Shown: positions 43,452 to 47,288, counted from the first letter of the stretch. The stretch: DNA of 64,000 nt from Alphaproteobacteria bacterium (GCA_015062535.1 SUUK01000002.1:31946-95945), one strand, 5' to 3'. Notes: generated by a model from the letters alone, not told the origin. Numbers and translations are program-made.

Positions 43452-43478
43452 TTTGTAGATCCCTTGACGATTAGGGGA
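43452..43478 (+). repeat. Degenerate copy of the ankyrin-associated hairpin element (inner stem deleted)
   Basis: TTTGTAGATCCCTTGACGATTAGGGGA keeps the left arm TTTGTAGATCCCTTGACGATT and the outer TCCC/GGGGA pairing. It lacks GCTAAACGCAATCG. Confidence 0.6.
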
Positions 43479-43486
43479 TATATTTG

Positions 43487-43515
43487 TTGCAAATGAGGTA
43501 AAATTATGATAAAAT
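43487..43515 (+). promoter_or_regulatory. Extended -10 promoter of the shared ank promoter/leader module (ank gene 1)
   Basis: TTGCAA (43487-43492), 17-nt spacer ending in TGA, TAAAAT (43510-43515), then the conserved leader AGGCTATGTTTTGAGAAATTTGAGG. Confidence 0.65.
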
Positions 43516-43545
43516 AGGCTATGTTTTGAGAAATTTGAGGCAAAT

Positions 43546-44208
43546 ATGGGTGAAATAACGTTAGAAAGCCAATTGATTGATATTATCAAAGATGAGGATA
43601 TGGCGGAGAATATTAAGGTAGCCAAGATTGATATGCTAGTTAGGCTTGGCGTTGATGTTAATGCTATGTATGGAGCAAGGTCTGCCTTAAAGCTCGCAAA
43701 TGAATTAAATGAAACAATAATTGCAAAAATGCTAGAAGATAATAAGGCAAGAGATTTTATTGATGATGAAAAAGCAGAAGAATTAGGCACTAAATTATTT
43801 GATAATTGTTCAGAAGATAGATTTGATATTAAAAAAATTAAAGAATTAATAGATATGGGTGCAGATGTTAATCAAAAAGATGAGACTGGGAAGACTGCTT
43901 TGATGGAAGCTTCACGAAGAGGTCATAAGGAAGTTGTGGAGTTTTTAATTCAAAAAGGGGCAGATGTTAATAAAGAAGATGATTATGGTTGGACTGCTTT
44001 GATGTGGACATCACGTAAAGGTCGTAATGAAATTGTGGAACTTTTAATTCAAAATGGGGCTGATGTAAATGTAAAGGATTATAAAGGTCGAAATGCAGTG
44101 ATGGTTGCATATGATAATGAAACAAAAAAAGCCATAATGGATACTGTTAAAAAGAGAAATGAAAAGACTGGAGAGAATGTAGTTATTCAGGGATTTGAGA
44201 GAGAATAG
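43546..44208 (+). CDS. Ankyrin-repeat protein, paralog 1 (A-type head, 2 repeats plus cap, IQGFERE tail)
   Basis: 220 aa. Head MGEITLESQLIDIIKDEDMAENIK...IKELIDMGADVN. Repeats DETGKTALMEASRRGHKEVVEFLIQKGADVN and DDYGWTALMWTSRKGRNEIVELLIQNGADVN. Confidence 0.9.
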   Translation: MGEITLESQLIDIIKDEDMAENIKVAKIDMLVRLGVDVNAMYGARSALKLANELNETIIAKMLEDNKARDFIDDEKAEELGTKLFDNCSEDRFDIKKIKELIDMGADVNQKDETGKTALMEASRRGHKEVVEFLIQKGADVNKEDDYGWTALMWTSRKGRNEIVELLIQNGADVNVKDYKGRNAVMVAYDNETKKAIMDTVKKRNEKTGENVVIQGFERE

Positions 44209-44213
44209 AGGGG

Positions 44214-44261
44214 AATTCGTAGATCCCTTGACGATTGCTAAACGCAATCGAGGGATGACGG
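44214..44261 (+). repeat. Ankyrin-associated hairpin element (full copy)
   Basis: AATTCGTAGATCCCTTGACGATTGCTAAACGCAATCGAGGGATGACGG. Stem CGATTGC (44232-44238) pairs with GCAATCG (44244-44250), loop TAAAC. Outer TCCCT/AGGGA pairing with a TGA bulge. No T-tract. Confidence 0.8.
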
Positions 44262-44275
44262 AAAGGTGAATAAAA

Positions 44276-45120: not shown

Positions 45121-45149
45121 TTGCAAAGAGGGGAAAATTGTGATAAAAT
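45121..45149 (+). promoter_or_regulatory. Extended -10 promoter of the shared module (ank gene 3)
   Basis: TTGCAA (45121-45126), 17-nt spacer ending in TGTGA, TAAAAT (45144-45149), then leader TGGCTATGTTTTGAGAAATTTGAGG. Confidence 0.65.
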
Positions 45150-45179
45150 TGGCTATGTTTTGAGAAATTTGAGGCAAAA

Positions 45180-45941
45180 ATGAGTGAAATTACATTAGAA
45201 AGCCAATTGATTGATATTATCAAAGATGAGGATATGGCGGAAAATATCAAGCTTGCTAAAGTTGATATGCTAATTAGACTTGGTGTAGATGTTAATGCTT
45301 TGTATGGTGCTAAGTCTGCCTTAAAGCTTGCAAATGAATTAAATGAAACAAAAATTGCAAAAATGCTAGAAGATAATAAGGCAAGAGATTTTATTGATGA
45401 TGAAAAAGCTCTAGAATTAGGCACTAAATTATTTGATAATTGTTCAGAAGATAGATTTGATATTAAAAAAATTAAAGAATTAATAGATATGGGTGCAGAT
45501 GTTAATGCAACAGATAGGTTCGGGGCTACACTATTGAGTGTGGCTTCGTTTTTGGGATATAAGGAAGTTGCAGATTTATTAGTAGAAAACAAGGCTGATG
45601 TTAATTTATGTAATGATTATGGAACTACTGCTTTGATGAACACTTGTAAAAAGGGATATACGGAAATTGCAAAACTGCTAATTAACAAAGGAGCGGATAC
45701 TGAGGCAAAGGATAATATGTATCAAACTGCTTTGATTATGGCTTCGTTTTGGGGATATAAGGATGCTGTTGAGCTATTAATTGAGAATGGAGCAGATGTT
45801 AATGTAAAAGATCATGCTGGTCGAAATGCAGTGATGATTGCAAAAGATGAGAAAACAAGAAGAGCAATTATAGATGCTGTTAAAAATAGAAATGAAAAGA
45901 TAGGTGAAAATATGATTGTTCAAGGGGTTGAGCGAGAATAA
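45180..45941 (+). CDS. Ankyrin-repeat protein, paralog 3 (A-type head, 3 repeats plus cap, VQGVERE tail)
   Basis: 253 aa. The head differs from paralog 1 at only 8 of 109 residues, and the repeats then diverge completely. Confidence 0.9.
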   Translation: MSEITLESQLIDIIKDEDMAENIKLAKVDMLIRLGVDVNALYGAKSALKLANELNETKIAKMLEDNKARDFIDDEKALELGTKLFDNCSEDRFDIKKIKELIDMGADVNATDRFGATLLSVASFLGYKEVADLLVENKADVNLCNDYGTTALMNTCKKGYTEIAKLLINKGADTEAKDNMYQTALIMASFWGYKDAVELLIENGADVNVKDHAGRNAVMIAKDEKTRRAIIDAVKNRNEKIGENMIVQGVERE

Positions 45942-45996
45942 AGGTTTTAATTTGTAGATTCCTTGACGTTTTGCTAGACGCAATCGAGGTATGACG
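45942..45996 (+). repeat. Ankyrin-associated hairpin element (hybrid stem)
   Basis: AGGTTTTAATTTGTAGATTCCTTGACGTTTTGCTAGACGCAATCGAGGTATGACG. The left arm is the CGTTTTGC type and the right arm is the GCAATCG type. Confidence 0.75.
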
Positions 45997-46013
45997 AGAA
46001 AAGGTGAATAAAA

Positions 46014-47195
46014 ATGAGTGATGATATTTTAGAAGAGCAGTTAATAGAAATTATAAGAAATAAGGATTTGAGTGAAGATATTAAATTAGCCAAAATTGAT
46101 ATGCTAATTAGGCTTGGCGTTGATGTTAATGCTATGTATGGTGCAAGGTCACCTTTAAGGTTTGCAAAATATAAAAAAGAAGAAAAACTTGTAGAGCTTT
46201 TAGAAAATAATGGCGCAAGAGATTTTATTGATGAGAAAAGAGCAAATGAACTTGGTGTAAAATTATGTGAGATTTGTGATAGAGAAGCTAAAGGTATAAA
46301 TATTGCTGAAATTAAAGAATTAATAGATATGGGGGCGGATGTTAGTGCAGAAGATACCAAAGGTAATACAGCTTTGATGTGTGCTTCAGTAGTTGGACAT
46401 AAAGAAATTGCAGAGTTATTAATTCAAAATGGTGCGAATGTTAATCAAAAAGATATCAATGGTGCGACAGCTTTGATGGAGGCTTCATATTGGGGAAATA
46501 AAGAAGTTGTTGAGTTATTAATTCAAAACAGAGCTGATGTTAATCAAAAAAATAATAATGGTAATACTGCATTAATATATGCAACTCTAGAAGGTTATAA
46601 AGAAATTGTTGAGCTATTAATTCAAAGTGGAGCTAATGTTAATCAAAAAAATAATGATGGTGAGACAGCTTTGATGGAGGCTTTATCTAAGGGGGGCTAT
46701 AAAGAAATTGTGGAATTTTTAATTCAAAATGGGGCGGATGTTGATCAAAAAAATAATGATGGTCGGACAGCTTTGATGGAGGCTTCATATTGGGGACATA
46801 AAGAAGTTGTTGAGTTATTAATTTCAAAAGGAGCGGATGTTAATGCTAAAGGCTATAACGATGAGTCTTCGCTGATTTGGGCTTCTCAATATGGACGTAA
46901 AGAAATTGCAGAGTTGTTAATTCAAAATGGTGCAGATGTTAATCAAAAAGATAACAATGGTCGTACTGCTTTGATAGAGGCATCACGTAAGGGTCGTAAT
47001 GAAATTGTGGAACTTTTAATTCAAAATGGGGCTGATGTTAATCAAAAAGATAATAATGGCGAAACAGCAAAGACATTAGCAAAAGATAAAAAAACAAGAA
47101 AAGCAATTATTAATGCTGTTAAAAAGAAAAATATAAAAGAAAATGGTGGTTCTTTTTTTAGTAAAATAAAAAAAGGATTAGAGGTCGATAGGTAG
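46014..47195 (+). CDS. Ankyrin-repeat protein, paralog 4 (B-type head, 7 repeats plus cap, GGSFFSKIKK tail)
   Basis: 393 aa. Head MSDDILEEQLIEIIRNKDLSEDIK. Seven near-consensus 33-aa repeats. No promoter in the 72-nt gap upstream. Confidence 0.9.
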   Translation: MSDDILEEQLIEIIRNKDLSEDIKLAKIDMLIRLGVDVNAMYGARSPLRFAKYKKEEKLVELLENNGARDFIDEKRANELGVKLCEICDREAKGINIAEIKELIDMGADVSAEDTKGNTALMCASVVGHKEIAELLIQNGANVNQKDINGATALMEASYWGNKEVVELLIQNRADVNQKNNNGNTALIYATLEGYKEIVELLIQSGANVNQKNNDGETALMEALSKGGYKEIVEFLIQNGADVDQKNNDGRTALMEASYWGHKEVVELLISKGADVNAKGYNDESSLIWASQYGRKEIAELLIQNGADVNQKDNNGRTALIEASRKGRNEIVELLIQNGADVNQKDNNGETAKTLAKDKKTRKAIINAVKKKNIKENGGSFFSKIKKGLEVDR

Positions 47196-47196
47196 T

Positions 47197-47288
47197 GATT
47201 TTAATTCGTAGCTCCCTTGACGATTGCTAAACGCAATCGAGGGATGACAGGTTCGGAGTATGGGGCAAGTGCAATCAAGGTATGACAG
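47197..47288 (+). repeat. Ankyrin-associated hairpin element plus decaying right-arm repeats
   Basis: Full hairpin (stem 47221-47227 / 47233-47239), followed by GCAATCGAGGGATGACAGGTTCGGAGTATGGGGCAAGT and GCAATCAAGGTATGACAG. Same unit as the tandem array at 61618-61703. Confidence 0.75.

Follow-up and report, generated by a model that had tools for sequence, protein, structure and literature searches.

A two-part hairpin that trails ankyrin-repeat genes in an alphaproteobacterium is probably a variant of the CGTC-tagged repetitive extragenic palindromes

The stretch of DNA analysed here (64,000 nucleotides (nt), one strand; hereafter the window) comes from an Alphaproteobacteria bacterium (GCA_015062535.1 SUUK01000002.1:31946-95945) and carries six ankyrin-repeat (ank) paralogs, p1–p6, five of which are trailed by a conserved hairpin, the element that is our subject. 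All six genes lie on the + strand, have an ankyrin-repeat Pfam match and share an N-terminal region of approximately 95 amino acids (aa). Four of them form one array (p1, 43546-44208; p2, 44276-45049; p3, 45180-45941; p4, 46014-47195) and two a second (p5, 61785 (or 61758)-62837; p6, 62970-63731). A preliminary description, made from the sequence of the window, had likened the hairpin to repetitive extragenic palindrome (REP) and RPE-type repeats, leaned towards a processing or stability signal, with recombination as another possible role, and considered the element to be tied to a single gene family.

A covariance model of the element, run across the whole 64-kb window with filters off, recovered five full copies on the + strand (54–69 bits) and one truncated copy (13.7 bits); the best score elsewhere was 11.2 bits, not counting faint echoes of these copies on the reverse strand (8–18 bits). 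Pattern searches and the model agree with the preliminary description on six copies, all on the + strand, and move each by only a few bases. The full copies begin 3–9 nt past the stop codons of p1–p5, with stems that begin 14–20 nt past the stop, so the claim that each of these genes is followed by a structured hairpin is borne out. Copy 1 occupies the 67-nt p1–p2 gap (44212-44265, 67.7 bits), starting 3 nt, and its stem 14 nt, after the p1 stop; copy 2 follows p2 (45059-45112, 63.7 bits); copy 3, a hybrid, lies in the 72-nt p3–p4 gap (45947-46001, 53.7 bits); copy 4 follows p4 and closes the four-gene array (47201-47254, 62.6 bits); and copy 5 follows p5 (62843-62897, 68.6 bits). The truncated copy, 5′ of p1 (43448-43485) and already recognized as degenerate, keeps the 5′ half of the element up to GACGATT and then reads AGGGGAT. 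It is a deletion derivative; a full element stands at that spot in a metagenome contig (L118) that is 96% identical to window positions 41218-43662. The 43-nt core of the element has three matches in the window at ≤3 mismatches, compared with 0.0 expected from shuffles; the 5′ box has six (0.13 expected) and the 3′ box eight (1.16 expected).

The element is a hairpin of approximately 45 nt, consisting of a 6-bp outer stem that starts A-T, T-A, a fixed 3-nt bulge and an inner stem of 7–10 bp, which varies by species and stays complementary throughout, around loops of 3–10 nt. Bases conserved beyond pairing are the 3-nt bulge, a G.AGA before the stem and a GAC after it; the unpaired flanks read AA.T.G.AGA and GAC(A/G), the latter being (C/T)GTC on the other strand, which we refer to as the tag. 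Read on the reverse strand, four of the five full window copies carry CGTC and one TGTC. Copies 1, 2 and 5 adopt the fold that had been predicted, with a 6-bp AUCCCU/AGGGAU stem, a UGA bulge and a 7–8-bp inner stem, at energies of −19 to −22 kcal/mol and z-scores of −3.6 to −4.2 (−21.6 kcal/mol, z −4.2 for copy 1; −21.4 kcal/mol, z −3.85 for copy 5); in copy 2 one A.C mismatch interrupts the inner stem. Folded as single-stranded DNA, the two strands do equally well (approx. −13 kcal/mol, z approx. −5.5). The inner stem of copy 1 is CGATTGC/GCAATCG with loop TAAAC, and in copy 5 both arms are altered (CGTTTTGC/GCAAAACG, loop TAAA) with perfect pairing, so that the compensatory change first noticed in this copy is real. 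The hybrid nature of copy 3 was likewise upheld: its 5′ arm, CGTTTTGC, is of the copy 5 type and its 3′ arm, GCAATCG, of the copy 1 type, its outer stem is mismatched (ATTCCT/AGGTAT) and it folds poorly (z −0.76).

Searching the window against Rfam 15 gave no match at gathering score except tRNA, and none on the element at E-values up to 10. A kink-turn reading of the TGA bulge with its flanking GA was rejected on inspection, as the required G.A/A.G geometry is absent, and the idea that the AGGGAUGA box works as a CsrA-type sponge with GGA motifs stays speculation, the box being paired in full copies.

Partial copies are also present in the window and had been overlooked. These tag-side half-copies consist of a 3′ arm, CGAGGGATGAC and a spacer (repeat family D6, + strand); one satellite, GCAATCAAGGTATGAC, occupies 47271-47286, and a tandem of three, repeating every 38 nt (61601-61704), is flanked by the pfk terminator and the p5 promoter.

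Extended −10 promoter-like sites precede p1 (43487-43515), p3 (45121-45149), p5 (61724-61752) and p6 (62910-62938), all on the + strand. None was found before p2 or p4, as had been noted; the hairpin and an AAGGTGA ribosome-binding site are all that the gaps in front of these two genes contain. Lacking promoters of their own, p2 and p4 depend on read-through. The neighbouring genes and both arrays end in canonical stem-plus-T-tract terminators (43403, 47374, 61559 and 63751). From this layout the four-gene array resolves into two promoter-A-hairpin-B-hairpin units, preceded by a further hairpin that in the window is the truncated copy. At the DNA level p1 and p3 are 80% identical and p2 and p4 70–82%, and the cores of the type-1 hairpins, at 95–98% identity, are better conserved than the adjoining coding sequence (70–82%). 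In the hybrid, the 5′ side resembles the 3′ end of p5, the 3′ arm and leader resemble the p1–p2 junction, and the switch point is the loop.

The promoter is part of a longer conserved leader, TGTGATAAAATAGGCTATGTTTT…GAGGCAAA, found before p1 (43487-43545), p3 (45121-45179), p5 (61724-61784) and p6 (62910-62969). It includes a two-codon mini-ORF (open reading frame), ATG TTT TGA, at 43521-43529 before p1 and 45155-45163 before p3; before p5, the ATG matching the start of the mini-ORF is in frame with the p5 gene. The p5–p6 block is bracketed by a 64-nt direct repeat (61541-61604 and 63733-63796, family D14), 77% identical and 2192 nt apart, which includes the pfk intrinsic terminator, and from this arrangement the block looks as if it was inserted or duplicated at that terminator.

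Scanning 185,579 species-representative genomes with the pattern TCCCTTGACR-N(8-28)-CGAGGGATGAC located the element in at least 115 genomic stretches, where by our own estimate approximately 10 matches are expected by chance. The source genome is absent among the matches listed, and several listed contigs often come from one genome. Nearly all belong to uncultured Alphaproteobacteria of the gut or rumen with a GC content of 31–52%, labelled ‘Azospirillum sp.’, ‘Rhodospirillaceae’ or ‘Alphaproteobacteria bacterium’, whose hosts include human, cattle, deer and reindeer; the few contigs that sit in metagenome-assembled genomes (MAGs) with other labels look like binning strays. The closest MAG among these matches, JAZRAL01, has approximately 70% nucleotide identity. 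A phage-borne element was ruled out, since only 2 of 2.9 million viral contigs gave a match.

The copies from other genomes provide strong support for the stem. Among the matches listed, 146 copies hold 98 distinct inner sequences between the two fixed boxes, and an alignment-free count gives these 146 copies a mean uninterrupted inner stem of 6.5 bp, compared with 2.6 bp after shuffling. When 51 copies are aligned with MAFFT, 98.9% of the inner helix is paired; five of its seven pairs are double-changed and none is changed on one side only. The covariance model yielded 210 matches in 0.70 Mb of loci, and an alignment of the 141 distinct best matches has 98.6% of cells paired and 10 of 14 pairs double-changed (339 such cells), values that no shuffle reaches and that fall to 40–52% pairing in slid registers. 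The latter alignment was fitted to the model and is thus biased towards structure, a bias from which the alignment-free count and the MAFFT test are free. More than 100 distinct variants from other genomes thereby add to the compensatory change seen in the window. The outer stem covaries as well, with ATCGCT/AGCGAT (with a GGA bulge), ATGCCT/AGGCAT, ATACCT/AGGTAT and ATTCCT/AGGAAT all found among looser model matches, while the first stem pair is A-U in 137 of 140 sequences and the second U-A in 138 of 141. The G.AGA flank, which lies outside the search pattern, is also well conserved (A 91% at −3, G 96% at −2, then A 96%; G 72% at −5). The GTC of the tag was fixed by the search pattern, yet is retained in looser model matches; the base that completes the tag is T in 55%, C in 22% and A in 21% of 117 non-redundant copies. 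Stem pairs are approximately 98% Watson–Crick, and G.T and A.C mismatches number 7 and 7 in the model alignment and 2 and 12 in another sample.

In other genomes the element is found beside many kinds of gene. Any ank-like gene is present at only 4 of the 115 loci among the matches listed; the neighbours include topA, lon, ftsZ, tig, engA, genes for pilin, an outer-membrane protein (OMP), a GAPDH-domain protein and a class I (Glu/Gln) tRNA-synthetase, and many others, with copies in both orientations. The view that the element is tied to one gene family therefore fails clade-wide, and the ank association holds in the low-GC lineage of the window only. With a crude ORF call for the loci listed, 48 gene contexts are unidirectional, 22 convergent and 13 divergent, and the element points the same way as the upstream gene in 56 cases and the opposite way in 36; in the same loci 79 copies are on the G-rich strand and 31 on the C-rich strand. 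Profiling 134 element-flanking genes with Pfam revealed no enrichment of transposases or recombinases. Nor was a RAYT (REP-associated tyrosine transposase)/IS200-like gene detected in the ORFs of the window and the 115 loci (approx. 0.9 Mb), searched with phmmer and for the HUH…YxxxNP motif; the queries were IS608 TnpA, validated with Pfam, and an unvalidated RayT sequence.

Inverted pairs of the element in other MAGs have a clear polarity, with 19 tags-outside (−,+) and 2 tags-inside (+,−) arrangements; their spacers, of approximately 60 nt, are often conserved, and the partners mostly differ in outer-stem variant. The spacer of the tags-outside dimers has a small palindrome of its own, …CTTTGCGAAGCGCAAAT…GCAATGCTGACGCATTG… (L004, L030, L041, L043, L113 and others), and the dimers with this spacer, from MAG-R073 and RUG13901, resemble a composite element of the BIME (bacterial interspersed mosaic element) kind. 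In the 120 nt downstream of full copies, tag-side half-copies are strongly over-represented, with 80 at 37 loci where approximately 3 are expected; 5′ half-copies occur at chance level. At loci such as L011, L024, L041 and L043 the tag-side half-copies stand in tandem with spacers of 10–25 nt.

Within the lineage of the window, the ank association is consistent. The element-bearing loci of JAZRAL01 among the matches listed, L039 and L092, are both ank arrays with the same layout as the window, and L039 carries a hybrid copy of the window kind. The window holds no counterparts of the genes that flank these arrays. A metagenome scan for the stem variants of this lineage found three contigs, each ank-adjacent, among them the L118 contig mentioned above. 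The four-gene array is identical in three independent samples. The same organism, 99.99–100% identical over up to 21 kb, was recovered from three unrelated sample sets (ENA ERZ27248436, JGI 3300022661 and Logan SRR7031497; L119, L120 and L121), and on these sequences the source organism appears to be a widespread, clonal lineage.

A different gene family shows a comparable arrangement in the MAG BRZ_RM_bin80, where the hairpin trails at least seven paralogous genes for Cys-rich secreted proteins of 340 aa that begin with a signal-peptide-like sequence and match no Pfam family (L005:1607-2626, plus L018, L019, L042, L075, L089 and L094). One of these Cys-rich paralogs is downstream of a pfk orthologue, in a neighbourhood like that of p5–p6 in the window. 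Elsewhere in the window, a 947-aa ORF without a Pfam match (48725-51568) adjoins a tRNA-Leu gene (48386-48472). The GC skew is approximately +0.3 throughout, at a GC content of 33% and with genes mostly on the + strand; the window sits on one replichore of a strongly skewed genome.

With these properties, the element is probably a REP, namely a two-part variant of the CGTC-tagged superfamily typical of Alphaproteobacteria. Two REP superfamilies have been described by Di Nocera, De Gregorio & Rocco (2013; PMC3733652). Those tagged CGTC, TGTC or CCTC occur mainly in Alphaproteobacteria and have a stem of 8–9 bp that nearly always opens A-T, T-A, a loop of 4–5 nt and a tail that is usually CCA; they are mostly head-to-head (HH) dimers with conserved spacers of 20–100 bp, lie near ORF 3′ ends and ‘apparently lack’ a dedicated transposase (PMC3733652). 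The opposite strand of our element reads (C/T)GTC-AT-CCCT-CG[stem]…[stem]CG-TCA-AGGG-AT-CTNC. Like the CGTC REPs, and CGTC-4/RPE-4 in particular, our element ends on one side in an unpaired (C/T)GTC tag; like them it also has a stem that starts A-T/T-A and continues C-rich (ATCCC…GGGAT) and a short conserved tail at the untagged end, is mostly alphaproteobacterial, intergenic and near ORF 3′ ends, and in other MAGs forms tags-outside (HH) dimers. As the superfamily also takes in Neisseria dRS3 and Rickettsia RPE-4 and RPE-6 (PMC3733652), the earlier likening to REP and RPE elements was apt.

Several observations weigh against this assignment or limit it. In place of one uninterrupted 8–9-bp stem, the element has 6 bp, a fixed TGA or GGA bulge and 7–10 variable bp; its tail is CTNC on the tag strand instead of CCA; and the window copies are single and all co-oriented, where CGTC REPs are typically HH dimers. 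The copy number and the ank link given here are drawn from 64 kb of sequence, a single related MAG and three short contigs. With G.T no commoner than A.C, the stems show no clear RNA-specific signature, so a purely DNA-level role is equally possible, and since the array is identical in three samples there is no sign of ongoing shuffling. Because the element agrees with the superfamily in its tag, its opening AT, its dimer polarity, its host class and its position, but not in stem length or the CCA tail, we file it as a superfamily variant and place it outside the four described CGTC families. Its loops of 3–10 nt and its reiterated tag-side half-copies also set it apart from them, and its host clade of uncultured gut and rumen MAGs lay outside the CGTC survey. 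The two-part stem is thus what is new here, CGTC-type REP repeats being already known.

It follows that the ank-gene hairpin is a local copy of a dispersed repeat and not an ank-specific device. The ank link is most simply explained by the element duplicating together with the ank genes: REP copies would have been carried along in tandem duplications of a promoter-ankA-REP-ankB-REP unit and probably provided the homology or join-points for them. Co-duplication and join-points together would give the array its regular ‘cassette’ look and the hybrid its switch in the loop; the hybrid and the unit boundaries themselves point to recombination at the hairpin. Enterobacterial REPs are known at duplication join-points. 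Each copy would be transcribed with its ank gene, and for p1–p2 and p3–p4 within a two-gene transcript, where, in the manner of other REPs, a hairpin of −21 kcal/mol would block 3′-to-5′ decay or bring part of the transcription to a halt. Expression would then be graded, with the upstream gene of each pair above the downstream one. A trans-acting factor would recognize the conserved box and spread the element. We hold each of these mechanistic roles with less confidence than the identification as a REP.

One version of the last step is more specific. The box G.AGATCCCT-TGA…AGGGATGAC might be the recognition site of a clade-conserved protein that binds or cuts the hairpin and breaks and rejoins DNA in or near the loop, spreading the repeat, leaving half-copies behind and moving or duplicating neighbouring genes as hairpin-bounded cassettes. 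We regard this as a long shot. If true, the hairpin-bounded cassettes, ank genes in one case and Cys-rich paralogs in another, would represent an integrase-independent, integron-like diversification of host-interaction genes in a class without integrons. The corresponding rival to the duplication model is that the element is itself a cassette recombination site, similar to the attC site of integrons, at which a hairpin-specific recombinase or nuclease moves REP-bounded genes. The single co-oriented copy after each ank gene that carries it (p1–p5), the hybrids of the window and L039 that switch arm type in the loop, the excess of tag-side half-copies, the ank blocks at different loci in the related MAG, and the Cys-rich paralogs of BRZ_RM_bin80, one of them downstream of pfk, are all in keeping with such a site. 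However, it lacks RYYYAAC/GTTRRRY cores; elsewhere most copies stand next to single-copy housekeeping genes, pointing either way or paired as inverted dimers; its neighbours show no enrichment of recombinases or transposases; and the array is invariant in three samples, while the hybrids are explained by ordinary homologous recombination between repeats. We therefore consider a dedicated cassette site improbable.

A terminator or attenuator without a canonical T-tract is slightly less probable again. In its favour are a stable, GC-containing hairpin right after stop codons and a T-rich sequence following GATGAC in roughly half of the clade copies. Those of the window continue with GG(A/G)A and no T run, and none of the five full copies was called as a T-tract terminator, in agreement with the preliminary description; the same genome uses canonical terminators at the four positions given above, the promoterless p2 and p4 require transcription to pass through the hairpin, and copies occur in both orientations relative to genes.

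The cis-regulatory RNA specific to ank genes towards which the preliminary description leaned, whether a processing or stability signal or a protein-binding motif, fares worse, and we judge it very unlikely. Every copy in the window, in the closest MAG among the matches listed and in the three metagenome contigs is ank-adjacent and co-oriented, and the hairpin is very stable as RNA; against this, 111 of the 115 loci among the matches listed have no ank gene, both orientations and inverted dimers exist, G.U pairs show no clear enrichment and Rfam holds no match. Least probable of all is that the hairpin has no function of its own and is a similarity left by recent tandem duplication of the ank genes and their flanks, for although the copies occupy equivalent positions of duplicated units whose flanks are also similar, the cores are far better conserved than the adjoining coding sequence and the box and covarying stems are kept in dozens of distant genomes, a covariation that already contradicts it.

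As a CGTC-type REP, the element offers an unusually clean handle on what recognizes and spreads these repeats, which are common in Alphaproteobacteria. It combines a near-invariant box with a freely covarying distal stem in dozens of uncultured gut and rumen species spanning GC contents of 31–52%, so that matching its presence to gene content across genomes could point to a partner protein; the half-copy arrays on the tag side could likewise help to find the mobilizer of CGTC-type REPs. For annotation, it accounts for a recurrent intergenic hairpin in these MAGs and cautions against reading it as a gene-specific riboswitch or terminator. The ank genes are probable host-interaction factors, and the REP copies are suggested to mark the join-points at which the paralog array grew.

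Among known systems, the attC sites of integrons resemble the window copies in being imperfect hairpins with extrahelical bases and a variable centre, present as one co-oriented copy after each gene of an array. The attC core sites (R″ RYYYAAC and R′ GTTRRRY) are absent from the flanks of the element, no integrase was seen with it (the window was not searched for intI), and unlike attC it is elsewhere dispersed singly and as inverted dimers beside housekeeping genes. The GTAG REPs of E. coli and Pseudomonas are, like the element, short dispersed extragenic hairpins with a conserved unpaired tetranucleotide that form dimers and clusters, and the G(T/A/G)AG at the other end of the element resembles their tag. 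GTAG REPs come with a RAYT (Y1 HUH transposase) gene, typically flanked by inverted REPs, and no RAYT/Y1 gene was found in the approximately 0.9 Mb examined here; the tag of the element that matches the literature lies on the opposite end and strand. Roles known for GTAG REPs include mRNA 3′-end protection, partial termination and serving as join-points of tandem duplications. REPs that lie as near to a stop codon as these can also hinder ribosomes at termination (cited in PMC12306157).

The closest comparisons are within the CGTC superfamily. Neisseria dRS3 and the Neisseria intergenic mosaic elements (NIMEs; CGTC-1) share with our element the clustering of CGTC-type palindromes in mosaic intergenic arrays. 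In Neisseria they adjoin genes for surface or variable proteins and presumably promote recombination. Unlike the element, dRS3 consists of 20-bp units, ATTCCC-N8-GGGAAT, with RS spacers in between, and it is a known target of an IS110-type recombinase and of filamentous phage, nothing comparable having been found here. For RPE-4, the published peptide WIPWSNHGMT (PMC3733652) can be back-translated under a palindrome constraint as TGG-ATCCCGTGG-…-CCACGGGAT-GAC, which would contain TGGATCCCGTGG…CCACGGGATGAC. A BLAST search of this consensus against plasmids gave no useful match. The reconstruction suggests that RPE-4 and the element have an ATCCC/GGGATGAC box in common.

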